From contig JAJCYS010000029.1 in NCBI GenBank assembly GCA_029262815.1, positions 9,837 through 73,836 on the forward strand: a DNA stretch of 64,000 bases. The letters run 5' to 3'. The DNA is from Deltaproteobacteria bacterium (GTDB lineage: Bacteria > Bdellovibrionota > JAJCYS01). Of the stretch, positions 9,105-62,850 are shown in pieces. The notes under the pieces were generated by a model that saw only the letters and a program-made list of their open reading frames with translations, made no database searches and was not told where the DNA came from. Position 1 is the stretch's first letter; every line of letters starts with the position of its first letter. The position numbers and the translations under genes are program-made.

Positions 9105-9201
9105 GGTGTGTTATCGGTGGGCGCGTGACCATACCTACCTGAAAATCGTATAACTATTTAAAAATATTGATGAAAAGTTCCAAAACCACGCTTTTGTAAA
9201 A

Positions 9202-9210
9202 TGCTATAAT
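9202..9210 (+). promoter_or_regulatory. Extended -10 element (TGcTATAAT) upstream of the giant gene.
   Basis: The sequence tgctataat lies about 45 nt upstream of the ATG. A strong Shine-Dalgarno (aagggggat) sits immediately before the start at 9257. Confidence 0.4.
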
Positions 9211-9256
9211 CCTTAAGTAAAAGCGGTGAACAAGACCACAATCATCAAGGGGGATT

Positions 9257-28281: not shown

Positions 28282-29871
28282 TTAATCTGAGTAAGTCCAT
28301 GATTCGGATCCAACGATTTGATTAGCGAGCGTTGTTGAACGAAAAGCCGTATCTTTTCTGGGAAAATGTTTCCACAGATTTTGTTTAACTAAGGATAGCA
28401 TTTGAACTTTAGATAGATGATCATCGCCGTATAACGAAATAATTTTGGAAGGGTGATCAGTGAGTGCGTACGTGCTGATGGGTGTCATGCCAAATGGGGA
28501 AAAATAATGAATAAAAAATGTATGGGAATCTTCAGATTTTCTATGATATTTAGCAGTGTAGGTCTTGGTCTTAAAGTTGAATGTTGTAGTCATGGGATTT
28601 TGTTGAACGGTTTGGACGGCTACGCGGGCGTGATTTCTAAGTAATGTTGTTTCAAATCCATTATGATTTGTACTGTGTTTTGTAAGTTGTATCTGTGCAA
28701 ATGGAAATTTGTTAGTCACAAGGTAGGAATAGAGTGAGTCCATAGTCTTCCAGGCTGTATTTTGGTTTGATAAAATCTGGTCATATGGTTTTTTCAGATA
28801 GGTGTCCAACTCTTCTTTTGAAAGCCATTTCGAAGATGCCTCGAAGGTATCTACAGGGATACCCCTGTGATAAATATTGTATGTAAAGGTAACTTGTGCA
28901 ACTGTCTGTTTGTTTTTGGCCAGCGAACCTTTTTTTTGTTCAATTTTGATTTCTAGTTTCTTTTTAATCGGAAACGCATCGTTGGGAAAAAGAGGAGGGA
29001 GGAAGTTATAGGTATATGATTCAAATCCAAGTGAAGGATGGTCTCCAGATACGCTATCTTTATTTAAATATAACTCAATTCTGCTTAATGATTGTGTTTC
29101 ATGGAGCGACAGGAATGTATTTTTGCCTTTAAAATTGATTTCAGGAATGAGCTCTTGTTGGCGTTGGGTGACAAAAATATGGTTTGGTTCTCTAAAATTG
29201 ATGACTTGTTGACCGTGAGGAAAAATGAGGTTGTTTTCGATAAAATAATCCTTATTATTTGTCCGGTTGAAAATTCTCAGTAAATTATTGAAGGCATGCG
29301 GGATTCGAATCCGAGTCATATCAAATTTTTTATTTTTGTGTAAAAAAGTGAGATCTGTGATTACGGAACCTTGAACAAAATATTTCCCACTCATTTCTCT
29401 AGAGATTTGATTTTGAATCCAACGGGTATAGGGTGTCGAAAATGAATGTAGTTCTTTTCGATTAAATTTCGCTTGTAGCCTAGGGCTGTTTTGGTTGGAC
29501 GATCGAAAATCCTCCCAGAGTTGCTGAAAATTTGCATTTCGTAAATGTTGATCCAGTTTAAAAAACTCAGCCAGAACTCGTGTATTGATCGTCAAAGCTT
29601 TGTGATTAGAGTTTTGACTGAAATGTAGTTGCGTGATGTTGCCATTATCTGTTCCGAATTTGTTTTTTTCTAGTCTGTTATATTTAAAATTTGATTTGAG
29701 AAAGGTAGTTAAACCTTCTTCTGTGATGAGGTAATGCCCAAAAGGTCTGTTTTGAGAGAGTAGATCTGAAAGAGTGTAGAATGGAATTTCACATCCGTGA
29801 CTCCATGCGCTGTTACAGAAAAAATATAGCGCAAGTATCCAAACAGAAAATCTTTGACTCAAAAGAGGCAT
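28282..29871 (-). CDS. Hypothetical secreted protein (529 aa).
   Basis: Signal peptide MPLLSQRFSVWILALYFFCNSAWS. Convergent with the GH5 gene across a 10-bp gap. Confidence 0.5.
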   Translation of the reverse strand: MPLLSQRFSVWILALYFFCNSAWSHGCEIPFYTLSDLLSQNRPFGHYLITEEGLTTFLKSNFKYNRLEKNKFGTDNGNITQLHFSQNSNHKALTINTRVLAEFFKLDQHLRNANFQQLWEDFRSSNQNSPRLQAKFNRKELHSFSTPYTRWIQNQISREMSGKYFVQGSVITDLTFLHKNKKFDMTRIRIPHAFNNLLRIFNRTNNKDYFIENNLIFPHGQQVINFREPNHIFVTQRQQELIPEINFKGKNTFLSLHETQSLSRIELYLNKDSVSGDHPSLGFESYTYNFLPPLFPNDAFPIKKKLEIKIEQKKGSLAKNKQTVAQVTFTYNIYHRGIPVDTFEASSKWLSKEELDTYLKKPYDQILSNQNTAWKTMDSLYSYLVTNKFPFAQIQLTKHSTNHNGFETTLLRNHARVAVQTVQQNPMTTTFNFKTKTYTAKYHRKSEDSHTFFIHYFSPFGMTPISTYALTDHPSKIISLYGDDHLSKVQMLSLVKQNLWKHFPRKDTAFRSTTLANQIVGSESWTYSD

Positions 29872-30010
29872 CTGAGCTAGATATCATATGTGACTCCCAT
29901 TCAAGAAACAACGTGCTCATAGATTTTTTAGTTACGCTTTTAAATCAAAATGATATAATTCTATTATAGGTGGTCTATATCTTAATTTTTAGATCCCACT
30001 CCCATTCACT

Positions 30011-31006
30011 ATGAAACTAGATCTGAGATACATACTACTGACGGTGATACTTGCGTGTTTTAGCTCCCATGGATTGTCAAATAACTTACCAACAGAGCCT
30101 TCGCAGCCAGGTTCGGCAGATCAAATTGAAAAATCAAATAATCTGCCTGCGGATGAACTGCTGAATGACGAGGGGGGATTTAATTTTTTACCTTATCTTG
30201 TCTCCGGAGGCATTCTAACGCTTATTCTTTCATCCCACTACATTTGGTGGGATGAAGAGCCCGAATCTTTTCATTTTAAAGAATTCCATCCGATGCTAAG
30301 CAGAAGTTCTGATTCGGGGGGCACAGATAAATTTGGCCACATGTGGATGAATTACGTGCTTACTCGACTGGGGTCCAGGCTTATGTACCTCTTGGGTGCT
30401 GACCGTAAAGAAGCCATCATTTTCTCAGGTTTGACCGTTTTTGTAGGGTACACGCTGCTTGAGATTCAAGACGGATATACCGCTCATGGGTTTGATCCAG
30501 GTGATTTTTTGTTCAACAACTTTGGCATGCTGCTGGGTGTCATGAAAGAGATCTTTCCAGAGCTGGATAACTATTTTAGATTTCGAATGGGGTATTTTCC
30601 CAGTCGCCATTTTATTCGTGCTTTACATGCCAATGCGAAATCATGGTCTGATTTTCCTGAAGATTATGCAGGATTAACCTATTATTTTGACTTTATACTG
30701 CCTTTTGTTCCTTTTTTAACGGTTGGTTTACACTGGGTGACCAAAGGATATCAATGGCCAGATGAGGATCCGCCAGTTCCCTTTTCACGAAAAAAAGAGC
30801 GATTTTTAGGGGTTCATGTCGGCATTAATGGGTCTTATTTGATTCGAACATTCATGAATCCACGATTTATATCAACCAAGATCTTCTACTTTTTAGACCA
30901 ATTAATTGCCGTTCCCTTTTCGATGATCGAATTTAAATTTAGTTTAGACGAAAGCTCAAATCGGTTGACCTTCGGAATTAATTCACACATAGTTATCAAA
31001 ATATAA
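30011..31006 (+). CDS. Hypothetical secreted protein.
   Basis: Signal peptide MKLDLRYILLTVILACFSSHGLS. Confidence 0.5.
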   Translation: MKLDLRYILLTVILACFSSHGLSNNLPTEPSQPGSADQIEKSNNLPADELLNDEGGFNFLPYLVSGGILTLILSSHYIWWDEEPESFHFKEFHPMLSRSSDSGGTDKFGHMWMNYVLTRLGSRLMYLLGADRKEAIIFSGLTVFVGYTLLEIQDGYTAHGFDPGDFLFNNFGMLLGVMKEIFPELDNYFRFRMGYFPSRHFIRALHANAKSWSDFPEDYAGLTYYFDFILPFVPFLTVGLHWVTKGYQWPDEDPPVPFSRKKERFLGVHVGINGSYLIRTFMNPRFISTKIFYFLDQLIAVPFSMIEFKFSLDESSNRLTFGINSHIVIKI

Positions 31007-31150
31007 CCTCGTTTATTTATGAGACCGGTTCAAGCTATAATACTGTTGAGTTATTATGGGCAGTATTACATTTCACGCGTTGATATCTAGCCAATTTCCT
31101 AAACAGATGTTATTTTGGGGCGTTTCCGCTATTGAGTTGCTGGAGGCGTT

Positions 31151-31894
31151 ATGATTCAAAAAACAGTTTTTGTTTGCATGATTTCTTTAGGGACTGTTGC
31201 TACGGGTTATGCGTTTCATGAAGAAGCGGTGATAGAGTCCTTTCTATATGACAGCGCTTCAGGAAGCCCCCAAAATCGACTCTTTTTTGATGCCAACATG
31301 TTTCATATTTCATTGGCAGGAAAGCAGATTAAGGGCAAAAAAGTCGTTTCGGACATTCAGGCCTCTTTTCATGCAAGGTATGAGCGGAGTCTTGCCTCTC
31401 GTTTTGGGGCGATACTTGCGTCAAATCTTAAGTTCATACATTTTTCAAATGATGGTGCTCAAGCTACTTTAGCAAAAAACTACGACGCTGTTGCTCTGAG
31501 TGGTGGTATCGGGTTATTTGGTATTCCTACTGAGTGGCTAAAGGTCAATGCTGTAGTCACGTTCTTTCAGCAGTTTTTTTATGTAGGGTCACCTTTGGAA
31601 AATCGGGTATCATTTGATTTAAATTGGATGCCTCAGCTGGAACTTTCTCTACAAGCGTTGGTTGCCCGTCTGTCACTCTTCGAATTTCAAACGGGGGTAG
31701 AGGGATTTGTTCAAGCAGGTAGTAAATCACTAAGCTTCGGATACGGGTTTGGTGTTTGGGCTATGGCATTTTTTATGACATCAAAGGTTTTTTATCTTAA
31801 GGCGGCCTACCATTTGAAAAATTTTGAATTCCAATCATCTGACGAACGTTATGAAGATCTAGAGGTTGGACTGGGTATGCGGCTTCGCTTTTAA
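31151..31894 (+). CDS. Putative outer-membrane beta-barrel protein.
   Basis: Signal peptide. Alternating amphipathic strands. C-terminal aromatic residue (...GMRLRF) typical of OMP signatures. Confidence 0.45.
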   Translation: MIQKTVFVCMISLGTVATGYAFHEEAVIESFLYDSASGSPQNRLFFDANMFHISLAGKQIKGKKVVSDIQASFHARYERSLASRFGAILASNLKFIHFSNDGAQATLAKNYDAVALSGGIGLFGIPTEWLKVNAVVTFFQQFFYVGSPLENRVSFDLNWMPQLELSLQALVARLSLFEFQTGVEGFVQAGSKSLSFGYGFGVWAMAFFMTSKVFYLKAAYHLKNFEFQSSDERYEDLEVGLGMRLRF

Positions 31895-31984
31895 TACATC
31901 CTCAAGACCCCAAAACCAATCATAATATGAATCAAGTAAAGTTTTCCTCCCGCAATGCCGACACGTGCATAAGGGAGAGGTCTT

Positions 31985-32551
31985 ATGAAAAAAATTATCT
32001 TGAGTCTTTCAATTGTGATAGTAGGGTTTGGATTAGGTAAGACTGGGTATGCCAAAAAAGATCCCATCGATGATGTGCTTGCCCAGAAAGCAATCAGCAT
32101 TCGACAGAACGTATTACTTAGATACAGTGAGTTGATGACTTTGGGAAGCGTGTCCAATAGTAAAGCTCGTGTTGTATTACTAGATAAATTTGATCAATCT
32201 TTGGCTCAAGCCCAAAAGAACAAAGATTATGATCGTGCAATTGGGTATACGGAAATGGTGTTGACATTGGTGAGGGCATACCACGTATTCAAAAATTACG
32301 CAGTGCATTTAACGTTTACGGATATTCATCCTGATGCTATTGAAGATGTGAAGAAAGCTGCAATTAAAGTGGGACAACTTGTGGATCCCATTATGCGAAG
32401 AGCTTTTTATTTATTACATGACGTGAGAAAAGACAATGATGTGCCTGTCTTTCAATTGGGATTTTATGTAAATTTAATCAATCGGTTGAATGAAACAATG
32501 GATGTGTTTCCAAGCGAGCTCGAGGTGTACATACTCCAATCTGCCCGATAA
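31985..32551 (+). CDS. Hypothetical secreted protein.
   Basis: Signal peptide MKKIILSLSIVIVGFGLGKTGYA. Confidence 0.5.
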   Translation: MKKIILSLSIVIVGFGLGKTGYAKKDPIDDVLAQKAISIRQNVLLRYSELMTLGSVSNSKARVVLLDKFDQSLAQAQKNKDYDRAIGYTEMVLTLVRAYHVFKNYAVHLTFTDIHPDAIEDVKKAAIKVGQLVDPIMRRAFYLLHDVRKDNDVPVFQLGFYVNLINRLNETMDVFPSELEVYILQSAR

Positions 32552-32781: not shown

Positions 32782-33825
32782 GTGCAAGTGAGGTCATGTA
32801 TGGCGTATTTTCGAGCAAGTGTAGTAGGGTTCATGTTTTTGCTGAGTTATGCTTTTCCGGCATTATCCTGTGGACCCGCGTTCGAAAATCAGTTGGATTC
32901 ACTGCTTAAACAATTCCATGAAACACCAAAAGTACTTCGTTTGAGAGATGCCTTAGTTGCCGCTGCGATTGAATATCAAAAAATTTTTCAAGATATTGTT
33001 CAGATTCAGGACGGTCATATCGTATTAGGTCATGCCAAAAAACAAGCCACACACCTCCCACAAAAGCTTCAAGCATGGGAGGTGCTTCAACCGTCGGGTC
33101 CAATTCGAATTTTAGGTGAACTAGGATATGGCGCAGATGAAGTACATATGGAATTGAAGGGTCGGACTCAAAATGTCTACAAAATTGGCGATTATTATGT
33201 TCGGCCTTTTTTACCTATGTACGCTCAAAAATCATCCTTTGATTCATTTCGTAAGATACTAGCTGCACAGAATCTACGTAAGATCACAGCGATAAACGTG
33301 GTATCTGAGACGATTCTAAGTTTTGTAACCGGTCGTATTTCCAAAATCATTAAGGAAGATGGCTCAGTTGTTAAAGGTGAATGGGATGTGAGGAAACTCA
33401 AAGCTTCAGCCACCAAAGAGATTACAGGCCCACTGCGAGGACTTTTAAATATGGATCATTCGATTGCGTCAGTGGCTGATGAAAAATCTCTTTCGAATTT
33501 TATGGTGTTTCATTTTTTGGTAGGACACTGGAATCTTAAAGAACATAATGTGCTTCGTGATATTAGCATGGTTAAAGGGGTAGATTACGGGGAAGCATTT
33601 CCCGTGTCGTTTAATCTGATGGCCTACGCGTTTTCTGCTATCAACTTGCCAGACCAGGTAACATCCGAAATGGTGAAGGCCATTGAGCACTTGTCCCCCT
33701 CTAATATCGGGCAGCGACAAGTCCTGCTGGCATACATGACCCAGCCAGAGTTATATCAGTTGGCTTATCAGCACTTAGTTTTGAAGCACCTGCTAAATTC
33801 TGGTCAATTTAAAATTTTAGAATAG
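32782..33825 (+). CDS. Hypothetical protein.
   Basis: Long ORF. N-terminal hydrophobic segment. No confident family. Confidence 0.5.
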   Translation: MQVRSCMAYFRASVVGFMFLLSYAFPALSCGPAFENQLDSLLKQFHETPKVLRLRDALVAAAIEYQKIFQDIVQIQDGHIVLGHAKKQATHLPQKLQAWEVLQPSGPIRILGELGYGADEVHMELKGRTQNVYKIGDYYVRPFLPMYAQKSSFDSFRKILAAQNLRKITAINVVSETILSFVTGRISKIIKEDGSVVKGEWDVRKLKASATKEITGPLRGLLNMDHSIASVADEKSLSNFMVFHFLVGHWNLKEHNVLRDISMVKGVDYGEAFPVSFNLMAYAFSAINLPDQVTSEMVKAIEHLSPSNIGQRQVLLAYMTQPELYQLAYQHLVLKHLLNSGQFKILE

Positions 33826-33833
33826 AATGAATC

Positions 33834-34883
33834 TTATCGAAAGAAATAATAGTCATCCATTTCAGGATAAAGCTCCGTATACGTGACCATGATTTTGTAG
33901 GCCTCAAAAAGTAATTCGAGCGCTTCCTTTGAGTTATAGGGTCCACCCGTGACGAATTTTTGGGTGAGCTTTTGTGTCAATTCGGGTTGCTCATAAAAAA
34001 AGCGTTGAGCAGCCGGATTCACAAAATGGCTTGGGCTAATCTTGTCGCCACGAGTGAAAAACATATAGAAATTATTTGGCCCGTCCAATTCACCGTCTTG
34101 CGTAAAAGCCTCAAACGATCGTGCGTAGGTATGTGTCGTGTTTGGTGTGTCCAATGCGTTATTGCAAAGTTCATACTCAGAGCGAAACAAAGGCCAGCCT
34201 TGTTTCCAAAAATACCAAGGTGCTTTCTTCGTAGCGGGCCCGTCCGTCGCGAGATGCGCCATAAATAAATCAAGAGCGACTAAAGAATGCCATGCAACCT
34301 CGACGCTATGTTCACCAACTGCGAATCTCATTTCAGTTTGGATCGTATCTTTATACTTGTGGGTTAATGTTTGAGCAGTTGTTAAAAATTCAGGCACATG
34401 TTCAGGGTTTCGAACTATAAAAAGCATGAGTGTGAGGTAGGCATTCACATCTTCTAAATATCCTTGCTTCACAGGGTGATGTTTTTCAGAGAATTTTTGC
34501 ATGAACGAATTCTTGGGGTACGTAACTAAGCCAGCTCCTTGAGAGCTCCATGTTGATAGTCTATTCATATTACTGATGAGCCATTTAGCGTAACTCGACT
34601 CTAAATTGGAAGTACTGCCTGTGTAGAGTTCAATCATTTTATTTGTGACTGCAGGATCTGTTGTCAATGGCTGTTGAAATGTCCACAAAATCCCACGGAC
34701 AACCAATCGTCGTTCCAATTCAGATTTGGCACCTGGAATTACAATAGTGCTCATTCGATCTTGTTCTAATTGAAGCAACTTTTCTGGATCATGCATCCCG
34801 CACGTGACTTGTTGAACACTGCCATGAGAATGAGGAGAAAGCCCGACTAGAGCTATTAATATGAATAATTGATTGAGTTTCAT
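33834..34883 (-). CDS. Hypothetical secreted protein.
   Basis: Signal peptide MKLNQLFILIALVGLSPHSHG. Confidence 0.5.
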   Translation of the reverse strand: MKLNQLFILIALVGLSPHSHGSVQQVTCGMHDPEKLLQLEQDRMSTIVIPGAKSELERRLVVRGILWTFQQPLTTDPAVTNKMIELYTGSTSNLESSYAKWLISNMNRLSTWSSQGAGLVTYPKNSFMQKFSEKHHPVKQGYLEDVNAYLTLMLFIVRNPEHVPEFLTTAQTLTHKYKDTIQTEMRFAVGEHSVEVAWHSLVALDLFMAHLATDGPATKKAPWYFWKQGWPLFRSEYELCNNALDTPNTTHTYARSFEAFTQDGELDGPNNFYMFFTRGDKISPSHFVNPAAQRFFYEQPELTQKLTQKFVTGGPYNSKEALELLFEAYKIMVTYTELYPEMDDYYFFR

Positions 34884-35079
34884 ACAGCAGCATTAAAACT
34901 AAATCATTGTAATTCATTTGTCAAATTAATTAATTAATTAATGATTAGAAGGAGTTGAATTAAAAAAATTACATCATATTCGATAGATGTGCAAGATTTC
35001 ACGTATGTGGGGTCGGTTTCAGACATTTGCAATTGAATGCTTCTTCTGCCTTCTATATAGTAAATAGTATACAGTGAAT

Positions 35080-35109
35080 GGGTAGGTATGTTGTTCATCA
35101 TACCTACCC
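35080..35109 (+). promoter_or_regulatory. 11-bp perfect hairpin in the 5' UTR of the propeller/CCP gene.
   Basis: The stem is gggtaggtatg, the loop ttgttcat, then catacctaccc. It lies 22 nt upstream of the AAGGAGG Shine-Dalgarno and ATG at 35132. Confidence 0.45.
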
Positions 35110-35131
35110 AAACCCTCACAAGGAGGATCGG

Positions 35132-37705
35132 ATGCCTCGTCGTATTTTTGTTTCCATCGTCGTTATTTTAATGATTGCCATCATGAGGATCTCTGCCTGT
35201 GGCAGTAAATCGTCTTCGCGAAAAGCAGTTCGGAATATTGCCTCTACAGATAATAATAATAACCAAAACCAAAATGGTAAATTGGGAGGCGGCATCCCTG
35301 TTCAATCGGGTGAAGAGGGTGATATAAAAGAAGGCCGATACCCCAGTCAATGCGGCAATATCCAAATATCGGATGATGACAAATATCTTTTTGTCGTTAA
35401 CAAAACCAAAAGCGGTGAGTATAAAGAGGACGCGCCTGGATCCTTGTCTGTTTTTCGTGTAAGTGAAAAAGGAAAGGATGATAACTCTCTTGTAGAAGAA
35501 GTCGGTGTCGGTGAAGATCCGTACAGTGTTTCGGTCTTACCTAACAAAAGTCGTGCGTACGTTACCAACGGAGCCGACAACAATGTCAGTGTGATTGATC
35601 TCAGAACCTCTAAAGAAATCAAAAAAATTCCAGTCGGTTCTGAACCTCGATGTTCTGCGTTGTCTCCGAGTGGAAAAATGTTGTATGTTTCCAATCATTC
35701 GGATGGAACCGTTTCTGTCATCGACACGGGTAGTACGCGCGTAATTAAAACCATCGATCTTCAACTAAATCAAGTCAGAATCAAAAATCCCTACGCCCTG
35801 AGTGTGACAAATAATAAAGACGAAAGTGATGCAGATGAAAAAGTATATGTAGCTGATTTTTATGCTCGAGGCCGAGCTTCCGTACCCATCGATCAACGAG
35901 AAGCAACCGACAATGGAAAAGAAGCGCGTATTGCAGTCATCGAGGCAAGTCAAAACAGTATGGCCCGTATTATCATGCTTAGCCCATTACCTGGTAATGT
36001 GGTTGGATTCCCAGGAGATCGGTCAAAATTTTCTGTACAAGGGTCAGAGCACCCGATTTTTAAAGCAAAAGGGGCCGACCCCACTAAGGAACTCCAAGGG
36101 GCGTTTTTTAACCAACTGTATCATTTTGCACTCGATCCTGAGTCAGACATGATGTACGTACCAGCCATTGGAGCCGCACCCGCGCCACCCGTAAAATTTA
36201 ATGTAAATATCCAGGCCCTTGTGGGGGTTGTAGATACTGCCAGTGATCAAGAAATCACCTCACTGCATCGCAATCTCAATAATTTAATTAAAGTTGAAAA
36301 AGATCCAGAACCCCCGTTTATTCCAGATAATGCTGCACGACTCGATCGCGCATTTATGGCTGATACGATAGCCTTGGCTATCCGAAAAGGCACAGCCCTA
36401 TTTGTCAGTCGTGGGGGGAGTTATGTCTTGCGAGCTGCTATCGGGAATGATGGCAGCATGAAATTAGAACAAAATAGCCGAGGTGCGGGTATTCGATTAG
36501 CCGTCGGCAATATTCCGACCGGCATTGTCATGAATAGCTCAGGAACACGGGCTTATATAAACGCCGAAGTGTCACAAACCGTTACGACACTTGATCTTGA
36601 GAAAAATGATGTCATGAGTACGTTTAGGAGTGCCGATTTACCTCCACCTGGATCGGAAGCGCATATGATCCTAATTGGAAAGTTAGCCTTTTTTACGGGT
36701 ATGGGCTTATCTCCCGAAAATTTAGTGAAAGCTGACGTCAGAAAGATTGATACCCACACGTTTCGAAATTTAGCATCCAACCATAACTGGAGTTCCTGCG
36801 CATCCTGTCATCCTGGCGGGTTAGCCGACGGTGTGACCTGGTTGTTTCCGACGGGACCTCGTCAGACGCCAGCGCTTGATGGCACGTTTGCCCTGAAGGA
36901 TCCCAATGATCAACGGGTACTCAATTGGAATGCAGTACGGGGTAGTGTGACGGATTTTAATAACAACGCCAGAAATATCCAAGGTGGGTTTGGATTTTCA
37001 ATTGATGCCGCACGGAAAGTTCAAATACCGGGTAACGACAAAGGCAGTGTGGAAGATGCAAAGATTGTTGAAAATCATGGCCCTGACCATAAAACAAAAT
37101 TTGGAAACCGAACGGGTTATTCTGATTCATTAAACCTGATGACCCTCTGGGTCCAGAAAGGCATTCGGACACCTAATCGTCCCTCAACCCTAAATGCACA
37201 ACTAGTAAACGCCGGTCGCGGGTTATTTAAAGTACATTGTGCGTCTTGTCATGGAGGCGCTAAATGGACTTCATCTCAAATTCAATGGACCAATCCAATT
37301 CGTAAGGGTGGGCAGCCGCTACCACCTGAAGCTGACAAGGTTCAGTTTATAAAACCAGAGCTACCGGTCATTGTGAAATTCGTCGGTGGTGTTCAATCAA
37401 CCGATATTATTATGAACATTGGAACATTGGATCTCACTAATGTAATCGAGTTTAGAGGTGCAGGGAAAGGTATTGGAAAACGATCTGTGCCACCGCCAGG
37501 ATCTTTTAACTCACCGTCCCTTTTGGGTGTGGCAAGCACGGGCCCGTATGGTCATCACGGTCGAGCCAAATCGTTGATTGATGTATTTCGAGCGAGAACG
37601 CCACAAGGGGGATTGGGTCACCCAGCTTTTGGATTGAGTGGGAATCAATTATCCGCTGTTGTGGAGTTTATTAGGGCCATTGACGAGAAAGAACCACCGC
37701 TTTAA
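35132..37705 (+). CDS. Lipoprotein fusing a YVTN beta-propeller to a C-terminal di-haem cytochrome c peroxidase (CCP/MauG-like) domain.
   Basis: Lipobox ISAC. YVTNGADNNVSVIDL...LYVSNHSDGTVSVIDT are YVTN repeats. Two CXXCH motifs (SCASCHPGG and HCASCHGGAKW). The C-terminal NSPSLLGVASTGPYGHHGRA matches the CCP PSLRNV..T.PYFHDG motif. The start is set at the Met with a perfect Shine-Dalgarno, not the ORF-track start at 35078. Confidence 0.75.
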   Translation: MPRRIFVSIVVILMIAIMRISACGSKSSSRKAVRNIASTDNNNNQNQNGKLGGGIPVQSGEEGDIKEGRYPSQCGNIQISDDDKYLFVVNKTKSGEYKEDAPGSLSVFRVSEKGKDDNSLVEEVGVGEDPYSVSVLPNKSRAYVTNGADNNVSVIDLRTSKEIKKIPVGSEPRCSALSPSGKMLYVSNHSDGTVSVIDTGSTRVIKTIDLQLNQVRIKNPYALSVTNNKDESDADEKVYVADFYARGRASVPIDQREATDNGKEARIAVIEASQNSMARIIMLSPLPGNVVGFPGDRSKFSVQGSEHPIFKAKGADPTKELQGAFFNQLYHFALDPESDMMYVPAIGAAPAPPVKFNVNIQALVGVVDTASDQEITSLHRNLNNLIKVEKDPEPPFIPDNAARLDRAFMADTIALAIRKGTALFVSRGGSYVLRAAIGNDGSMKLEQNSRGAGIRLAVGNIPTGIVMNSSGTRAYINAEVSQTVTTLDLEKNDVMSTFRSADLPPPGSEAHMILIGKLAFFTGMGLSPENLVKADVRKIDTHTFRNLASNHNWSSCASCHPGGLADGVTWLFPTGPRQTPALDGTFALKDPNDQRVLNWNAVRGSVTDFNNNARNIQGGFGFSIDAARKVQIPGNDKGSVEDAKIVENHGPDHKTKFGNRTGYSDSLNLMTLWVQKGIRTPNRPSTLNAQLVNAGRGLFKVHCASCHGGAKWTSSQIQWTNPIRKGGQPLPPEADKVQFIKPELPVIVKFVGGVQSTDIIMNIGTLDLTNVIEFRGAGKGIGKRSVPPPGSFNSPSLLGVASTGPYGHHGRAKSLIDVFRARTPQGGLGHPAFGLSGNQLSAVVEFIRAIDEKEPPL

Positions 37706-37707
37706 AT

Positions 37708-38811
37708 TTACAAATTGGATTTCCAATAGGTGGGGTTGACCAAAATACCATCCGTCATGTTCACTTTGGCCACGTTCACCTTTTGAATATTGAGGGCTTC
37801 CATATAGCCTAATACGAGAATCAGGTTTGATATTTCCGTGCTGGCATATTTGGATCCTATCGCTTCATCGGATAACCCTAGACGTCGATGTAAGGTGTCA
37901 CGGACTTCCTTTTGGGTGAATGACTTTGAGTCACTGTTTACTTGGTTTCGAATGCTGTAATAATGAACCCCGCCAATGCCTAGGATTTCTGAATTTGAAA
38001 GTTTTGCTTTCAAATCTTGTGAGGTTGTTTTTAATGCATGTGCTTTGGCATGTTCAAGGGCTGCTGCTGCGTCGCTTTGAAAAATAGGATTGGGCGTCGC
38101 TCGCGTTTCTTTGCGTTGAATATGTTTTAGGATGTAATCTTTGAACGTGACTGATGCCAGACTTCCTTTGTGCACACTTAATTTTTCTGAGATTGAAGCA
38201 GAAAGTTGCATACTGCCACCACCGATATCCCAAACTACAAGTGGCTTCCCATTGTTTTTCACTTTTCCGGCTGCACCATAATAGCCAATTTCGCCTTCAT
38301 CTTGTTGAGAAATAATTTTAATACGTAATCCGAGTTCACGATAAGCTCGCTCTAAAAATATTTTTGGATTTCGAGCATGTCGAAATGCCGAAGTGGCAAC
38401 TGCAGCAAATGTTTTTGCGCCAAGTGAGACGGCTTGTGCTTTGAATGTTGTTAACACTTTCATCCCACGATCTATTATTTCTTGGCTGAACTTTCGGTCT
38501 TTTGAAGCTGACAAATCGGATTTATAGGGTACTTTTTCTTTTGCCTCGCCCAACACTTTCAGAATGGTATGTCGGCAGGTATCCACAAGTGCAACCGTCA
38601 TTTTAGTGGTACCTGATCCGATGTCAAATGCCGCACGTTTGGCAATACAGGTAGGGATTGTTTTGACTTGAGTGTATGTGATGGCATAGCCGATCAGGCT
38701 AAACAAAACGATCGTAATGAATCCGGTTACCAGGCGTTTTCCATTCATGGGGTTGGCTCCTAAGGATATTGGCGTATTTGTATATCTAGTGCATTCTTGT
38801 TCAAACATCAA
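37708..38811 (-). CDS. ppx: Ppx/GppA-family phosphatase (exopolyphosphatase/pppGpp phosphohydrolase).
   Basis: FDIGSGTTKMTVALVD and VWDIGGGSMQLS are ASKHA-fold phosphate-binding motifs typical of Ppx/GppA. N-terminal transmembrane anchor. Confidence 0.75.
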   Translation of the reverse strand: MMFEQECTRYTNTPISLGANPMNGKRLVTGFITIVLFSLIGYAITYTQVKTIPTCIAKRAAFDIGSGTTKMTVALVDTCRHTILKVLGEAKEKVPYKSDLSASKDRKFSQEIIDRGMKVLTTFKAQAVSLGAKTFAAVATSAFRHARNPKIFLERAYRELGLRIKIISQQDEGEIGYYGAAGKVKNNGKPLVVWDIGGGSMQLSASISEKLSVHKGSLASVTFKDYILKHIQRKETRATPNPIFQSDAAAALEHAKAHALKTTSQDLKAKLSNSEILGIGGVHYYSIRNQVNSDSKSFTQKEVRDTLHRRLGLSDEAIGSKYASTEISNLILVLGYMEALNIQKVNVAKVNMTDGILVNPTYWKSNL

Positions 38812-38841
38812 TTAAAAAAGCGATTAACTTCAGATTACTGC

Positions 38842-39588
38842 TTAAGATGGAGAACTATATTTCACGATTGGTGCAAGGAAATGATCAAACTGCCAATTTT
38901 TTCGATGTCGCTTGGGCGGGGTGATAGGTAGGGTTTCAAGGGCCAAATAATCAAAACCTAGATTTTTGAGAAATCCTCTAAATTGCGTGCCCAATGTATC
39001 TGGTGCATCCACAAAAAAGGTAAGTGTACCCGTAGATTTTAGAAGCTTAAGTTTGGCTACCGTTTCGATAAACAAAATGCCATCTCGATGGAGTTCTGTT
39101 AGATCTAGAGGATAGCCATCATAAACGATGCCACTGAAATGTTCTTGGGGTAGGGTGTGAAGAGCTTCTTCCCAACTCCCTTCAAGGACAGTAGCATGTG
39201 GAATCGCTTGGGCCTCTTTTGCGAGATGTGTATTGATTTCAATGATGATGTGATCTTGAATATTCCGGCTGGCGCGATAGCTTTCAATGACTGTATCTAA
39301 AATGCCTAGGCCGTATCCAATATTTAAAATATGGCCACCGTTTCGGGTAACAATATCCCCCAAACGTTTCATGTAAGGTGCCGCGTAGCTGGACATTGCC
39401 TCGTGACCCAGAATATGCATGATACGTTCGCCATCTTCAGTGGTTTCGAGAGAGGGTAATGCTTGGCGCCAGGCATCTCGTAGATCTTCAGTGTAAAGAA
39501 TTTTCCGAGAATCTAAAGATGTCGAAAGGGACGCAACATCATCCGTCATGTATAAAGGTGAGTCTTCCATTGGGCCTATATATAGCAT
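38842..39588 (-). CDS. Putative SAM-dependent methyltransferase-like protein (GAMT/RMT2-like motif I).
   Basis: GGHILNIGYGLGILD resembles the GAMT motif VLEVGFGMAIAA. Otherwise unassigned. Confidence 0.4.
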   Translation of the reverse strand: MLYIGPMEDSPLYMTDDVASLSTSLDSRKILYTEDLRDAWRQALPSLETTEDGERIMHILGHEAMSSYAAPYMKRLGDIVTRNGGHILNIGYGLGILDTVIESYRASRNIQDHIIIEINTHLAKEAQAIPHATVLEGSWEEALHTLPQEHFSGIVYDGYPLDLTELHRDGILFIETVAKLKLLKSTGTLTFFVDAPDTLGTQFRGFLKNLGFDYLALETLPITPPKRHRKNWQFDHFLAPIVKYSSPS

Positions 39589-39660
39589 GAAATGATCTAA
39601 ATTGAAAGTTGACGAATAGCCCCGTAGGTCCGTTGAAAACGAACCTACGGGTGTGTGTTG

Positions 39661-42192
39661 TTAAGGGATTAAAAAAGGCTCATGTGCGTCTATAGACTTC
39701 AGAAATTCCACAACAGCTGAAACCTCACTCAAATCCATTTTAAAAAGTGGGTGCTCTAGGCCACCGTCGGTCTTGAGTTTAAACACATCTTCAAGCATCT
39801 GAGCTCGACCGTGATGGCCGTAGGGGCCTGTGGTAGCCGCCCCTAATAAGCTCGGGCTATTGAAAGACCCACCCGCACCTACGGAAGCTGTTCCAATGGC
39901 ACCACCCGCACCTCGAATTTCGATGGGGTTGGTGAGATCTAACGTTGCAGTTCCCACATTGGTGTGAATGATCGTATCTCCATTAAATGAAACTAGTGGT
40001 CCATTGGTGGCTGCAACGAGAAAGACAACGCCTGTGATACTTGCCGCTGGAGTAGATGAACCTCCAAAGAATAAGGGCAGGGGATAGTCAATCCTTGAAT
40101 CTGTCCATTGTTCACCGCCATGACAGGCGACACAGGCCTCTGCCGAATTATCGTTCGCTCCGTTGATATCCGTTGTTCGGGTAAATGTTTTACGTCCCAT
40201 GGCAACCAGGTGGGGTTTTAACCCCGAGGGCCGATTGTAGGTTCGAACCCCTTTTTGAACCCACAGGGTCATTTTGTTTAATGCTTCAGAGACGCCTTTA
40301 ATATTTGAGTCGCTCGTTGGATTTCGTCCCAGAAAATTATTGATAACCGTTTGTTCATTCGCACCATGGTTGCCGACTAACCCCGTATCCGATGGACCAG
40401 CGTTGGGATCATTGGCTGGATCCTGTGCAAAAACTTGAGCATCGGCTGTGAATCCAAAGCCCCCTTGCACGTTGCGTGCATTGTTATTGAAATCGGTCAC
40501 ACTACTTCGAACTGCATTCCAGTTAAACACGCGTTGGTCAATTGCACCGCCATACGAAGAAAAAGAGCCGTCCAAAGGTATGGTCTGTCTGGGGCCAGTG
40601 GGAAACAACCATGTGACGCCATCAGCCAAGCCATTGGGATGGCAAGACGCACAAGAGCTCCAGTTGTTATCTGAGGCCATGTTTCGAAAGTTTGCGGTTA
40701 CGATATTTCGTACATCTGCGTTGTCGGCAACTTCTGCTGGGATCCCAAATCCAGTGAAGAACGCAAGTTCTCCAATGAGAATCATGTGTGCTTCGGTGCC
40801 AGGCGCAGGTAGGTCTGCGGTTGCAAAGTTCGAACCAATAACCGAATTAGTTTCTAAATTTATACACGTGACATTTTGGGAGACTTTGTTGTTCACATAA
40901 GCACGTGTACCGCCTGAGTTTAAAACGACCCCGTTTGGAATACTCCCAACTGTGAATTTCGTAATAATAGTGTTGGTGACTTCAAAATCAAGTTCACCAT
41001 CTGTGATGGCACCTTTGGCAACGAAACTACCGGATCGAGATACAGCAATTGCGACATCATTCCGGACTGCAATTGCCACAAAATCACCAAAGAAGGCTTT
41101 CTCTAATCCACCTAGCACAGTGCGATTGGGTTCTGTTTTGACGGACTCATTTAGGTTTGCGCGTGAAACCACTTCGCCATTGAATAAGGTAGCCAGTAGT
41201 GCCTGAATATTCACATTAAACTTGACGGGCGGTGAAGGTCCCGCGCCGATTGAGGGCACGTAGAGCCGCCCATTGTAATATCCCAGATGTCCCAATTGGT
41301 TGAAGTAAGCCCCTTGTGGTACAGCGGCAGGGTCTGTGCCACTCGGTGCTTCAAAAACTGTGCTCCCAAAGGCTGAGCGGTCTCCATTAAATCCCACATT
41401 ATCGATGGGAGCTAGGCGCACGATACTCGAAATAGCAGTTGTCTCTAAGGACACAATACCAACACGACCTTCTTTGCCGTTATCAAACCCTTCAATCGCA
41501 TCAACACCTAATCCGGGTCGAGGACGCGCGAAAAAGTCCGTCACATATAGGGATTCATCAAAATCTTCGTCATTGCCATTATTGGTGAGGGCGAGGCTGT
41601 ATGGATTGTAAATGCGCGTGGGGCCATGGGTTGGATCTTGAAAGATGAGCTCACAAGTTTTAATTAAAATATTGTTCACCGTGTCGATGATCGATACCGT
41701 GCCGTCCGAAAAATTAGCGACAAACAGCAGATTGCCAGATGGGGAAAGGGCGGTACCCCGAGGTTCAGATCCCACCATGATGGTTGTCAGGACTGTATTG
41801 TTTGATAGATCAATCACGGAAACAGTGTTGTCGGCTCCATTACTGACGTAGGCTCGGGTTCCTGCAGCGTTAACTGAAACACTGTAAGGGTCTCGTCCAA
41901 CTTCTATCTCAGCTAGTTTTGTTTTGCTGTCAGACTCACCGTTTAGAACCTGTACGACCGTTAAGGATCCTTTATGAACATAAGGGGTTGCGGTTTTAGC
42001 TGCTTCAGTGGAGGAAATCTTGTTGATCACGTAGATTCGTGTGTTGTCATTTGAAATTTGTATAGTGCTGCTTAAAGAAGCCAAGATGGCCGCGACAACG
42101 GCCTCATCATCTTTATTGTTACAGGCATAAAAAGTCGTGGCAACACCCATCACAAACGTCAAAAACAAACTAACAACGAGATTCCTTCTCAT
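39661..42192 (-). CDS. Paralogous lipoprotein with the same YVTN beta-propeller plus di-haem CCP-like architecture.
   Basis: YVSNGADNTVSVIDL, then CASCHPNGLADGVTWLFPTGPRQT, then CVACHGGEQW, then NSPSLLGAATTGPYGHHGRA. Same architecture and many shared residues with the 35132..37705 gene. Lipobox YAC. Confidence 0.75.
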   Translation of the reverse strand: MRRNLVVSLFLTFVMGVATTFYACNNKDDEAVVAAILASLSSTIQISNDNTRIYVINKISSTEAAKTATPYVHKGSLTVVQVLNGESDSKTKLAEIEVGRDPYSVSVNAAGTRAYVSNGADNTVSVIDLSNNTVLTTIMVGSEPRGTALSPSGNLLFVANFSDGTVSIIDTVNNILIKTCELIFQDPTHGPTRIYNPYSLALTNNGNDEDFDESLYVTDFFARPRPGLGVDAIEGFDNGKEGRVGIVSLETTAISSIVRLAPIDNVGFNGDRSAFGSTVFEAPSGTDPAAVPQGAYFNQLGHLGYYNGRLYVPSIGAGPSPPVKFNVNIQALLATLFNGEVVSRANLNESVKTEPNRTVLGGLEKAFFGDFVAIAVRNDVAIAVSRSGSFVAKGAITDGELDFEVTNTIITKFTVGSIPNGVVLNSGGTRAYVNNKVSQNVTCINLETNSVIGSNFATADLPAPGTEAHMILIGELAFFTGFGIPAEVADNADVRNIVTANFRNMASDNNWSSCASCHPNGLADGVTWLFPTGPRQTIPLDGSFSSYGGAIDQRVFNWNAVRSSVTDFNNNARNVQGGFGFTADAQVFAQDPANDPNAGPSDTGLVGNHGANEQTVINNFLGRNPTSDSNIKGVSEALNKMTLWVQKGVRTYNRPSGLKPHLVAMGRKTFTRTTDINGANDNSAEACVACHGGEQWTDSRIDYPLPLFFGGSSTPAASITGVVFLVAATNGPLVSFNGDTIIHTNVGTATLDLTNPIEIRGAGGAIGTASVGAGGSFNSPSLLGAATTGPYGHHGRAQMLEDVFKLKTDGGLEHPLFKMDLSEVSAVVEFLKSIDAHEPFLIP

Positions 42193-42269
42193 ATCTTCCC
42201 CCCGGTTCTAGATCATTAAATCGAACAGGGGTTCAATTTACAATCTTGACTTTTTGAATTTGAAGTTAT

Positions 42270-42455
42270 TTAGGGCGTGTCCTCATTAGGGATTCGTTAT
42301 GAGGAAATGGAGATTTTGATTCGAAACGAGGAGGTTGAGTGAAAAAACCGCAGGTGTAGTAGCGCTACATCGAGGATTCTTTCATGAAAATCGACGAAGT
42401 TGTAGGCCAAAAGATCTATTCCACAGTAGAATCTCTAATGAGGACACGCCCTAGC
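42270..42455 (+). mobile_element. MITE-like element, family B, copy 1 (~185 bp with ~25-bp terminal inverted repeats).
   Basis: The termini tagggcgtgtcctcattagggattcg and gaatctctaatgaggacacgccctag are inverted repeats. The whole element recurs reverse-complemented at 62675..62850. Confidence 0.75.
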
Positions 42456-42987
42456 TGAATTTGGGTTTGAAAGACAAAGTCATCCCGATGAGTACAGCAT
42501 TATTAAAGACTTGTGCCCCAAGCCCCAAACGAAATCCATTTTCAATATGGTAGTACAAGCAGAGTTCAGTCGATGCGAGGTTGAACCCTTGGCTAAAGAC
42601 ATACGTGAGGCCAGTCTGGGCGGTTAGGATTAAATAACGGAGTAAAAACCAATCAAATCCGATAAGGGTGTGTATTGAGAAAAGATACTGACTAGCGTTA
42701 CCAAAGATACTCGCCCCCGATGCGACGAATCCCTGAAACATACGGCCCGTTGTATGGAATTTTAACGAAAGGGGGACGGTACCTCCATAGAGATCAACTG
42801 CTTCGAAATTAGTAGCTATGAAAAGCTCTGGCTTTGCTGAAAAAGATAACCATTTTTGAATGGGCACGACAATTTCAATTTCGGGATTGACCATGCCAAG
42901 GACACTAAAAGAGGGCTCTTCAGCAGTGGCCAGCTGAGCTGTTGTGAACCCTAAAAGTAAGATGGATAAAAAGAAAAAATTTTTCAT
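42451..42987 (-). CDS. Small outer-membrane beta-barrel-like protein.
   Basis: Signal peptide MKNFFFLSILLLGFTTAQLATA. Small (178 aa) with beta-strand-like alternation. Its stop codon TAG is the terminal trinucleotide of the family B element. Confidence 0.5.
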   Translation of the reverse strand: MKNFFFLSILLLGFTTAQLATAEEPSFSVLGMVNPEIEIVVPIQKWLSFSAKPELFIATNFEAVDLYGGTVPLSLKFHTTGRMFQGFVASGASIFGNASQYLFSIHTLIGFDWFLLRYLILTAQTGLTYVFSQGFNLASTELCLYYHIENGFRLGLGAQVFNNAVLIGMTLSFKPKFS

Positions 42988-43117: not shown

Positions 43118-43684
43118 TTAAATCTGTGGTGCCCAGGTAAATGCAACCATAGCCAAAGTTCCTCTAGGTCCAATTTGCGCATCAACACCGACTCTTAATT
43201 CCTCTGTGAGTTTATAATATACATCCAGAGATAATCCAGGAAAGAGTACCGCAACAGAGTCCAAAATCCCGACATACCAAAGCCCTGTCTCAGCTTTAAG
43301 ACCAAAGTGACTGTTGATATCCCAAGAAACACCAATGAGGGTTTGACCCACAAAGCTAAATGCGTTGTTTTTGTATATAGGTGTGCCGCCCACTTTAATG
43401 TAAGGGGTAATTTTTTCTAAGCTCCAAAACGCCTTGAGTGCAATAGGTAGGTTAACAACGGGTCCAACACGACTAAAGTCAGTGACCAAACCCAGGCTTG
43501 GCTCTACGGTGACGCCTAACCAACTATTAAATTTTACGTCAATTTCAATTTCTGCTTTACCACCACTAATAAACGCATAATCTGCAGCAAGGCTGTCTTT
43601 GCTTGTCAATGAAACTGTGCCTAACACAGCCACTAGACCCAATAAACCAATTCCTTTAATTATTTTTTTCATACATTCCTCCAC
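43118..43684 (-). CDS. Small outer-membrane beta-barrel-like protein, paralogue of the upstream gene.
   Basis: Signal peptide. Similar size and pattern (GLGAQVFN versus GVDAQIGP regions). Confidence 0.5.
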   Translation of the reverse strand: MEECMKKIIKGIGLLGLVAVLGTVSLTSKDSLAADYAFISGGKAEIEIDVKFNSWLGVTVEPSLGLVTDFSRVGPVVNLPIALKAFWSLEKITPYIKVGGTPIYKNNAFSFVGQTLIGVSWDINSHFGLKAETGLWYVGILDSVAVLFPGLSLDVYYKLTEELRVGVDAQIGPRGTLAMVAFTWAPQI

Positions 43685-51321: not shown

Positions 51322-51855
51322 ATGAAAATCTATACCAAAAAAGGTGACCTTGGCCAGACACAAACCTTGGGGAGTGGGCGTGTGCCTAAGGATGATCAAA
51401 GACTTCATGTGGGGGGCCTCATCGATACGTGTAATTCAACTGTCGGATTTTTGTGCTCACTATTGCCCAGTGATGACCCACTGACTGACAATCTTCACCG
51501 CATTCAACGTGGCTTATTTAGCCTTGGACTTGAGGTAACGGGTGGACGTCAACAAGACCATATGTTAAATGAATCAGACGTAACATTTTTAGAATCTCAA
51601 ATCGATCAATATTGGGATACTTGTCCGCCGCTCACAAAGTTTGTTTTACCAGGTGGCACACCATCTTCGTGTCAAGCCCATCTGTGTCGTGTCCAGGTGC
51701 GGACAATGGAACGCTCTCTGGTTACCCTCTGCCGAGAAACCAACACACCATTTGATTTGGGACTGCAATATGTGAATCGTTTGAGTGACTATTTTTTTGC
51801 TATAGCACGATATTTGAATCATCAAGCGGACATGGGAGAAGTAACATGGCCTTAG
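51322..51855 (+). CDS. PduO-type ATP:cob(I)alamin adenosyltransferase.
   Basis: The N-terminus MKIYTKKGDLGQTQTLGSGRVPKDDQRLHVGGLIDTCNS matches the PduO/MMAB family consensus MKIYT.TGD.G.TSL..G.RV.K. Confidence 0.8.
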   Translation: MKIYTKKGDLGQTQTLGSGRVPKDDQRLHVGGLIDTCNSTVGFLCSLLPSDDPLTDNLHRIQRGLFSLGLEVTGGRQQDHMLNESDVTFLESQIDQYWDTCPPLTKFVLPGGTPSSCQAHLCRVQVRTMERSLVTLCRETNTPFDLGLQYVNRLSDYFFAIARYLNHQADMGEVTWP

Positions 51856-53045
51856 GAGAGTCCAGCCGTATCCCCGGCTTTTATAAATTAAAGTTTAATC
51901 AGAAATTGACTCACATTTCTGAATTAACAGGTATCTCCCTAGAACGGTTAAACGGAGCATTCCAATCCCTGCACATGGCTCAAACAGGCATCGATGAGTT
52001 GGTCGAAAACTGTATTGGTGCGCTCTCAGTACCGTTGGGTATTGCGCCAAATTTCAAAATAAATGGAAAAGACTATCTTGTGCCAATGGCTGTAGAAGAG
52101 AGCTCCGTGATTGCGGCTGCCTCAAAAGGGGCTAGGGTCACATATGAATCAGGCGGGTTCGCGAGTGAACTTTTAGACAACATGATGATCGGGCAAGTTC
52201 AGTTTTCAATTCGAGATGAAAAAGATGCTGACACCGTACGAGATAAAATTGCGTCTTATGAAGAATCGTTGCTAAGTGATTTAAATGAAGTCATTCCAGG
52301 GATGGTTCATCGAGGCGGTGGGGTTCGTGCAATCTATGCACGTGGGCCTTTTACCTATCAAAGTCATACTTTTTTGGTGATCCAAGTCGATGTATCGGTG
52401 CAAGATGCCATGGGCGCCAATGTCACCAACCATGTGTGTGAACGCTTAGGAAAATTATTAAACCGTATGGTACCCGGGCAAACCAACACATGTATTCTTA
52501 GCAACCTCGCAACCAAGCGACTCGTGCATACGACCTGCCGTGTACATTTATCAGAAATAGTGCCTGAGCACGAATGGGATGATGCAATCCGTCGTTTTGA
52601 ATTGGTCCAAGGATTTGCTGAAGTGGACCCTTTTCGTGCAGTCACCCACAACAAAGGAATCATGAACGGCATTGATGCTGTGCTCTTGGCCACAGGAAAC
52701 GATTGGCGGGCGAACGAAGCAGGTGCGTTTGGATACGCAAGCCTATCCGGTCGCATAAAACCCCTTTCTCATTGGCGTGCTGAAAAACCCTACTTATTTG
52801 GAGAGCTCCAACTTCCCATCCAACTCGGAATTGTAGGTGGGGTCACCCGAATTCACCCCACCGCCAAACTCAGCCTAGACATCTTAGGCATTGAGCATGG
52901 CAAAGAACTAGCAGAGCTCGTAGGAGCCGTCGGTTTAGCTCAAAATTTTAGCGCCTTACGTGCCCTAGCTTTTGAAGGCATCATGGAGGGGCATATGCGA
53001 TTGCACAAAAAAAACCTCAAACGCCACAAGACGCTTGCTGAGTAA
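51846..53045 (+). CDS. mvaA: Class II hydroxymethylglutaryl-CoA reductase.
   Basis: ENCIG (the ENVIG motif), DAMGANV and GIVGG motifs. Its ~400-aa length and N-terminus resemble the Pseudomonas mevalonii class II enzyme. Overlaps the upstream gene by 10 nt. Confidence 0.85.
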   Translation: MALGESSRIPGFYKLKFNQKLTHISELTGISLERLNGAFQSLHMAQTGIDELVENCIGALSVPLGIAPNFKINGKDYLVPMAVEESSVIAAASKGARVTYESGGFASELLDNMMIGQVQFSIRDEKDADTVRDKIASYEESLLSDLNEVIPGMVHRGGGVRAIYARGPFTYQSHTFLVIQVDVSVQDAMGANVTNHVCERLGKLLNRMVPGQTNTCILSNLATKRLVHTTCRVHLSEIVPEHEWDDAIRRFELVQGFAEVDPFRAVTHNKGIMNGIDAVLLATGNDWRANEAGAFGYASLSGRIKPLSHWRAEKPYLFGELQLPIQLGIVGGVTRIHPTAKLSLDILGIEHGKELAELVGAVGLAQNFSALRALAFEGIMEGHMRLHKKNLKRHKTLAE

Positions 53046-62674: not shown

Positions 62675-62850
62675 AGTTCTCACGAGGGATTCTACTGCGG
62701 AATAGATCTTTTGGCCAACGACTTCGTCGATTTTCATGAAAAAATCCTCGATGTAGCGCTACTACACCTGCGGTTTCTCCACTCAATCTCCTCGTTTCGG
62801 CTCAAAATCTCAATTTCCTCGCAACGAATCCCTTATGAGGACACGTCCTA
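62675..62850 (-). mobile_element. MITE-like element, family B, copy 2 (reverse orientation, left TIR partly degenerate).
   Basis: Reverse-complement alignment to 42270..42455 along its whole length, for example cgattttcatgaaa(a/g)aatcctcgatgtagcgctactacacctgcggttt. It lies in the divergent region between feoB and the 62926 ORF. Confidence 0.7.

Follow-up and report, generated by a model that had tools for sequence, protein, structure and literature searches.

What are two related genes, each joining a beta-propeller to a domain with two haem-binding motifs, doing on either side of a phosphatase gene and a methyltransferase gene, and does that company mean anything? The question is raised by a 64,000-nt stretch of contig JAJCYS010000029.1 from a member of the Bdellovibrionota (assembly GCA_029262815.1), here called the window at its full length, in which the four genes occupy the analysed interval 35132-42192. 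The two genes, A and B, are members of a large, widespread and uncharacterised propeller plus di-haem family. The fuller reading, which we hold with moderate confidence, is that they are old paralogues in an exported family whose di-haem domain belongs with bacterial cytochrome c peroxidase (bCCP), MauG and MbnH, that they would work by the mechanism proposed below, and that their neighbourhood in the window is accidental. The features on which this reading depends are as follows.

35132 to 37705, plus strand: gene A, an 857-residue lipoprotein with a propeller and a di-haem domain, called from its open reading frame (ORF), ribosome-binding site and domain matches.
36620 to 37702, plus strand: di-haem domain of A, with CASCH at 36797-36811 and again at 37238-37252, PSLLG..PYGHHG at 37514-37561 and the candidate sixth ligand His830; verified by translation.
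39661 to 42192, minus strand: gene B, an 843-residue paralogue of A and the first gene of a co-directional run of B, methyltransferase and ppx, called from its ORF and domains.
40831 to 42075, minus strand: seven-bladed YVTN-type propeller of B, residues about 40-454.
39664 to 40830, minus strand: di-haem domain of B, with CASCH at 40639-40653, CVACH at 40120-40134, PSLLG..PYGHHG at 39808-39855 and the candidate sixth ligand His814.

Both ORFs end where the initial annotation had placed them, and its central claim of two related propeller plus di-haem genes stands: the proteins are 49% identical across about 827 residues, which is their full length (E = 0), and the motifs of both are confirmed. 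Its description of the pair as divergent was mistaken, since A lies on the plus strand and B on the minus strand and the two are convergent, with the stop codon of A 2 nt from that of the ppx gene. The ATG at 35132 is the likely start of A because AAGGAGG stands six bases before it. Both proteins are predicted to be exported with lipoprotein-type signals, and the family is predicted to consist mostly of lipid-anchored proteins of about 800 residues: the lipobox of A (ISAC, Cys23) is canonical, that of B (FYAC, Cys24) is atypical at position -2, and a loosely defined lipobox can be recognised in 40 of 64 homologues.

Apart from the propeller, curated libraries recognise nothing in A and B but a generic c-type haem motif. 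The YVTN repeat model TIGR02276, named earlier as a check on the propeller, scores 67.7 bits in A and 71.2 bits in B against a cut-off of 27.85, and there are matches to lactonase and YncE-type propeller models as well. An AlphaFold2 model of B was obtained with a pLDDT of 86.4 and a pTM of 0.89, and in a structure search with the predicted model the top match of the propeller, by a clear margin, was the beta subunit of hydrazine synthase. The modelled N-terminal domain is thus a seven-bladed propeller of the beta type, closest to hydrazine synthase beta.

In the C-terminal domain the two CXXCH motifs stand at residues 556 and 703 of A and at residues 514 and 687 of B, and the PSLLG..PYGHHG motif at residues 795-810 and 780-795, respectively. 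A profile of 81 C-terminal domains, in which the domain of A was aligned with 80 homologous ones, was searched against solved structures in the Protein Data Bank (PDB). It matched the peroxidases 1iqc (1.7e-11), 3o5c (2.2e-9) and 4aal (1.9e-8), the gamma subunit of hydrazine synthase (5c2v_C, 2.3e-8), an entry named 'Di-heme enzyme' (6e1c, 1.5e-7) and, at about 1e-4, MauG. The alignments to 1iqc, 3o5c, 4aal/4aao and 5c2v_C run colinearly across the two haem motifs and on through the C-terminal one. Two CXXCH motifs in colinear N- and C-terminal halves are a feature of the superfamily, and they are present and invariant in 64 homologues of A and B; the conservation of the haem cysteines and histidines, on which the initial annotation had staked its assignment, extends to C514, C517, H518, C687, C690, H691 and H793 without exception.

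Taken domain by domain at E <= 0.01, all 81 sequences match the MbnH-family model (best 4.9e-11), 76 match the di-haem peroxidase model NF040606, 58-64 the MauG-type models (58 for MauG), 57 the Pfam family PF03150, 48 the RoxA-like motif PF21419, whose cut-off some family members exceed, 42 RoxC and 30 hydrazine synthase gamma. The NCBIfam matches are all far under the curated cut-offs. In A, NF040606 reaches 19.5 bits against 150, and the hydrazine synthase beta, gamma and fused models reach 51.7, 15.1 and 49 bits against 560, 625 and 1250; in B, the beta and fused models reach 36.9 and 32.5 bits, TIGR03791 15.6-18.5 bits (cut-off 443.85), TIGR04039 21.1-23.6 bits (cut-off 362.85) and PF03150 14.9-18.5 bits at E = 0.043 (cut-off 25.6), a model for which A is not listed. 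Since the profile matches run across the superfamily and the NCBIfam scores fall far below the curated cut-offs, the C-terminal domain is best described, as far as sequence comparison can place it, as a member of the bacterial di-haem peroxidase/MauG/MbnH superfamily that belongs to none of its curated families. Thus the earlier assignment to the CCP/MauG type survives at the level of the superfamily, where the profile reaches solved peroxidases, and falls short at the level of Pfam, where A and B are both under the cut-off.

The family to which the pair belongs is a large one. A word-indexed search returned more than 348 homologues, of which the best 120 are nearly all full length, and a scan of one genome per species gave 357 loci. 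Its members are named only 'YVTN family beta-propeller protein', 'lactonase family protein' or 'YncE family protein', and its carriers include Planctomycetota (Candidatus Uabimicrobium among them), several Methylococcales, Ketobacter, Hahella, Marinibactrum, Binatia, Acidobacteriota, Pseudobacteriovorax and others. No canonical peroxidase was found among the fetched family loci. An exhaustive profile search, the raw counts of which are inflated by YVTN-repeat giants, also returned polypeptides in which the propeller plus di-haem unit stands twice or three times in tandem; P0136 (2355 residues) holds three full units and P0137 (1545 residues) two, as real tandem fusions or as read-through in gene calling.

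A and B are each other's best hits only narrowly, at 49% identity against 46-48% to planctomycete homologues, and their G+C content at third codon positions (GC3) is unremarkable, from which the duplication that produced them is judged to be old. A recent transfer of the two genes was considered and rejected, as their GC3 values of 0.38 (A) and 0.43 (B) lie within the range of the neighbouring genes. Paralogues also sit together at one other locus, that of Candidatus Uabimicrobium sp. HlEnr_7 (L003), where a tandem pair of family genes at 7337-9790 and 9890-12343 shares 65% identity; local duplication of the family therefore recurs elsewhere. This tandem pair is followed by a gene for a 1718-residue Ser/Thr kinase with FG-GAP and propeller repeats.

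What chemistry would such a protein carry out? One answer, which we consider rather doubtful, is that A and B are classical periplasmic H2O2 reductases of the bCCP type that carry a propeller, take electrons from cytochrome c and serve oxidative-stress defence. Many of the carriers belong to largely aerobic taxa, the best PDB matches of the profile are true peroxidases, NF040606 is matched by nearly all of the domains, an msrA gene adjoins one Methylovulum locus and ECF sigma/anti-sigma genes stand at several others. The haem surroundings and the score in A, 19.5 bits where the curated peroxidase model asks for 150, argue the other way. Classical bCCP has a His/Met electron-transfer haem, a distal His loop, an inter-haem Trp, a catalytic Glu and Gln and a Ca site; its Met ligand lies three residues after the A-V that follows PY.H.G, and its catalytic Glu and Gln lie 20 and 10 residues past the inter-haem Trp (PMC10094543). 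In 64 aligned family sequences both CXXCH motifs, H793 and E758 are invariant and, between the haem motifs, so are D524, W528, R535, N557, F568, N571 and Q576. No Met is conserved at the sixth-ligand position of the electron-transfer haem. A His takes its place: of 72 sequences, about 50 have it three residues past V-F and about 16, A and B among them, have it 10-11 residues past V-F; A and B have Arg or Lys at the usual His position and their His 7-8 residues later, an arrangement also found in the A/B subclade. For the second haem His/His ligation is probable, the candidate sixth ligands being His814 of B and His830 of A.

The first haem departs from the peroxidase pattern as well. No His lies between H518 and W528 in any of 21 aligned sequences, which leaves the family without a distal His loop after the first CXXCH for reductive activation, and in the 64 sequences no Glu is invariant in the stretch from one haem motif to the other, the place of the catalytic Glu in bCCP and MauG (PMC10094543). 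Counted by spacing from the family's DQR, which aligns to the DGR of bCCP, the Glu position falls on the invariant N571, in a stretch that is weakly aligned. HMMER aligns the W-D-G-R of bCCP to x-D-Q-R in the family with no Trp in that column, and a nearly invariant W558 stands four residues past the Arg; in place of the Asn of GPRN, a Ca-site residue in bCCP, the family has the Gln of GPRQ. With neither the classical ligands nor the catalytic Glu in place, the family probably carries out a chemistry other than classical peroxide reduction.

A second alternative, which we regard as unlikely, is that the proteins are oxidisers of the MauG or MbnH kind, in which H2O2 or O2 would generate a high-valent species that modifies a protein, a peptide or a small molecule held by the propeller. 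Such a reading fits with a large binding domain fused directly to the haem domain, and with the MbnH model, which alone is matched by all 81 domains, alongside the MauG-like models and those of the di-haem oxygenases RoxA, RoxB and RoxC. The genes for MauG and MbnH lie next to those of their substrates. Around the family no partner or substrate gene is conserved, none of the partner genes mauA/mauB and mbnP is found in the window, no Tyr is conserved at the sixth-ligand position, and the best score of B, 23.6 bits, stands far under a cut-off of 362.

Distinctly less probable still is a free-standing unit like hydrazine synthase beta-gamma, which in non-anammox bacteria would handle hydroxylamine or reduce a small nitrogen oxide, converting NO to hydroxylamine for instance. 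The propeller, the top structural match of which is hydrazine synthase beta, points in this direction, as do the profile match to gamma with its similar SCASCH..G..G..W stretch, the presence of the family in several Methylococcales, and a probable bis-His second haem that resembles haem gamma-II (PMC12607021). Against this, the only conserved Cys residues are the four of the CXXCH motifs, and B has no other Cys after residue 443, so that no third haem-binding Cys is conserved as an equivalent of Cys165 of hydrazine synthase gamma, which makes the extra covalent bond of haem gamma-I. A and B are also the sole CXXCH proteins in the 64-kb window, with no alpha-subunit-like gene beside them; the hydrazine synthase models reach 15-52 bits against cut-offs of 560-1250, and the gamma model is matched by only 30 of the 81 domains. 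With equally low expectation, we speculate that the family as a whole is a widespread free-standing counterpart of hydrazine synthase beta-gamma, carrying out propeller-gated multi-electron chemistry on small nitrogen or oxygen species in non-anammox methanotrophs, planctomycetes and predatory bacteria. If this were true, the family would be part of the stock of periplasmic haem proteins on which anammox bacteria drew for their hydrazine synthase, and a propeller closest to hydrazine synthase beta bears in any case on the debated origin of that enzyme.

We return to the preferred reading, an exported propeller plus di-haem family whose chemistry probably differs from that of classical peroxidases, for which the following course can be proposed. 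After export by the Sec pathway and lipidation, two c-type haems would be attached in the periplasm. The second haem, probably His/His ligated, would pass electrons to or from a soluble redox partner. At the first haem, the stretch from its CXXCH to the conserved Trp offers no candidate for a distal His; this haem would be open and catalytic and would act on a small oxidant or substrate beside the family-specific T-D-F-N-N-N...Q-G-G motif. The propeller may cap or gate the site at haem 1, or hold the substrate, by analogy with beta beside gamma in hydrazine synthase. A role in oxidative stress, as the initial annotation had suggested, is possible.

Several points weigh against this reading. 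In the Pfam and NCBIfam scans A and B are under every curated cut-off for the haem domain. A structure model of the C-terminal domain only, from 21 sequences, had a pLDDT of just 42.5, and the searches with the full-length structure listed only propellers and gave no fold-level match for the haem domain. Finally, both the choice of haem ligands and the function given to the propeller are deduced from the spacing of residues.

The bCCP/MauG superfamily has more than once yielded unforeseen chemistry, in a range from peroxide reduction through the cross-linking of protein side chains and the cleavage of rubber to NO reduction in anammox. Here is a large branch of it, with members of about 800 residues and invariant haem motifs, that is annotated only as 'YVTN/lactonase-type propeller protein'. 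As it passes no curated cut-off and the classical catalytic residues are missing, it is a plausible source of a new reaction. Carriers that can be cultured, for instance Hahella ganghwensis DSM 17046 and Marinibactrum halimedae NBRC 110095, make the question testable.

Does the company that A and B keep help to answer it? The genes between them and the non-coding elements beside them are the following.

37708 to 38748, minus strand: a short Ppx/GppA-family phosphatase gene (346 residues) with an N-terminal transmembrane helix, converging on A.
38842 to 39570, minus strand: a SAM-dependent methyltransferase gene (242 residues) like guanidinoacetate N-methyltransferase (GAMT).
35079 to 35110, plus strand: hairpin in the leader of gene A, with a 12-bp stem, 22 nt before the start codon.
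42271 to 42453, no strand assigned: a 183-bp element resembling a miniature inverted-repeat transposable element (MITE), with 25-nt terminal inverted repeats, between the stop of the upstream gene and the start of B.

The identities given to the two intervening genes by the initial annotation were borne out. PF02541 scores 95.3 bits in the phosphatase (cut-off 27; 5.9e-27), with the exopolyphosphatase model TIGR03706 at 107 bits against 307 and the specific GppA models also under their cut-offs. A 346-residue protein 100% identical to the translation from 38748 exists in an NCBI-sourced collection, and its homologues are 40-48% identical, the named ones mostly from Bdellovibrionota, a hint that the source organism probably belongs to this group. 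The N-terminus consists of a positively charged stretch followed by the transmembrane helix, on account of which the catalytic domain may face the periplasm. The methyltransferase is GAMT-like on sequence comparison: phmmer aligns residues 33-191 to the solved GAMT 1xcj at 1.3e-20, and PF27704 (GuanidinoAc_N-MeTrfase) is precomputed for it and its homologues, whereas a local Pfam scan gave no match. It has only 13 homologues in the word-indexed search, and two homologue contexts share no neighbours with the window.

That A, B, the methyltransferase and Ppx form one redox/polyphosphate module, the most specific proposal of the initial annotation, is very improbable and already contradicted: the genes are physically adjacent, B, the methyltransferase gene and ppx all run along the minus strand, separated by 90 and 93 nt, and the membrane helix of Ppx may place it facing the periplasm too, but a tblastn search with the Ppx, the methyltransferase and six other neighbours from the window found no Ppx or methyltransferase match within 10 kb of the family gene at any of 80 family loci. 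Two further annotated contexts of close A/B homologues hold no ppx or methyltransferase, and the contexts of the methyltransferase homologues and of the Ppx homologues hold no propeller plus di-haem gene or other gene of the cluster. As the linkage is not conserved, the ppx-linked module is unsupported, and the adjacency appears to be a local accident with no conserved functional meaning.

Other partners were sought around the family. Clustering of all flanking ORFs and a Pfam scan of 147 immediate neighbours gave no recurrent partner; the commonest Pfam family among these 147 was the protein kinase, with seven occurrences. A link with polyphosphate was rejected: the 80 loci yielded a single ppk1 and a single ppk2, about the number expected by chance, and hence no enrichment of polyphosphate genes around the family. 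A link with regulators was likewise rejected as too sparse, Ser/Thr kinases flanking seven loci and AAA_16/OmpR-type, GGDEF-EAL and ECF sigma genes a few more; Ser/Thr kinases are common in Planctomycetota, the home of several of the kinase-flanked loci. In Methylococcales, an ECF sigma factor gene and a zf-HC2 anti-sigma factor gene lie downstream of one family gene (L022), an ECF sigma gene lies in the same place at another (L027), and msrA lies directly upstream of a third (L036). Such neighbours are weak hints of envelope or oxidative-stress regulation. In a single case (L087, 11466-11705) the gene immediately downstream of the close homologue P0009 codes for a small zf-CDGSH iron-sulfur protein, which could be an electron partner.

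The hairpin in the leader of A and the repeat element upstream of B, both reported earlier, are present. The hairpin folds at -28 kcal/mol (z = -3.7), and none of 200 shuffled sequences folds as well. A sigma-70-like site stands at 35033-35061, in a region where such sites occur at chance frequency; promoter and terminator scans stayed at the level of shuffled sequence, and an Rfam scan of 34500-42700 found no family. The arms of the MITE-like element are 96% complementary; it runs into the stop codon of the upstream gene, 78 nt separate its other end from the start of B, and its terminal 19-mer has three copies in the window against none expected, the third at 62832-62850 with two mismatches. 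Differential regulation of A and B is possible.

Elsewhere in the window, two adjacent genes on the minus strand (42451-42987 and 43118-43684) encode small secreted proteins of 178 and 188 residues, paralogues at 28% identity (E = 1e-13) with no Pfam match, for which an alternating hydrophobic pattern and a C-terminal aromatic residue suggest small outer-membrane barrels. Several ORFs of 190-530 residues at 32782-34883 and 28282-32551 are also without a Pfam match, and much of the window is orphan-like. A class II (degradative-type) HMG-CoA reductase is encoded at 51846-53045 on the plus strand (355 bits against a cut-off of 260), and therefore the source organism is taken to have mevalonate-pathway metabolism.

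How, then, does the A/B family stand beside known systems? The oxidising enzymes of the MauG, MbnH and RoxA type share its superfamily, and the MbnH model reaches every one of its domains; the family differs from them in scores of 15-25 bits against cut-offs of 340-440, in its fused propeller, and in having neither an adjacent substrate or partner gene nor a conserved Tyr ligand. The classical bCCPs (Nitrosomonas 1IQC, Shewanella 3O5C, Geobacter MacA 4AAL) give the best profile E-values and have the same order of two CXXCH motifs, with GPR(N/Q)xP..L and D(G/Q)R shared after haem 1 and F..PSL....PY.H.G after haem 2. Their haem domain comprises about 320 residues, whereas that of A and B has about 390 with long insertions, and the family further departs from them in its His for the Met ligand, its Gln for the Ca-binding Asn of GPRN, the lack of the distal His loop and of an invariant catalytic Glu, and a fused propeller of 400 residues.

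The closest parallel in architecture is found in hydrazine synthase, whose beta and gamma subunits (solved for Kuenenia as PDB 5C2V and fused to each other in Scalindua) place a seven-bladed propeller before a di-haem domain of the CCP/MauG fold, an arrangement that A and B probably share, with gamma matched by the family profile and with a bis-His second haem that is probable for A and B too. What sets the A/B family apart is the lack of an alpha-subunit partner gene and of a third haem-binding Cys, scores far under the cut-offs of the curated models, the lipoprotein signal and an occurrence in many non-anammox lineages. A 2025 study described more than 100 distant homologues of fused beta-gamma in many phyla, some of them beside alpha-subunit homologues (PMC12758564). 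Candidatus Uabimicrobium amorphum carries two copies of the A/B family and has no hydrazine synthase matches in the table of that study (PMC12758564); the family therefore appears to lie outside its homologue set. Of all the systems compared, it is the beta-gamma unit of hydrazine synthase that the architecture of A and B most resembles.

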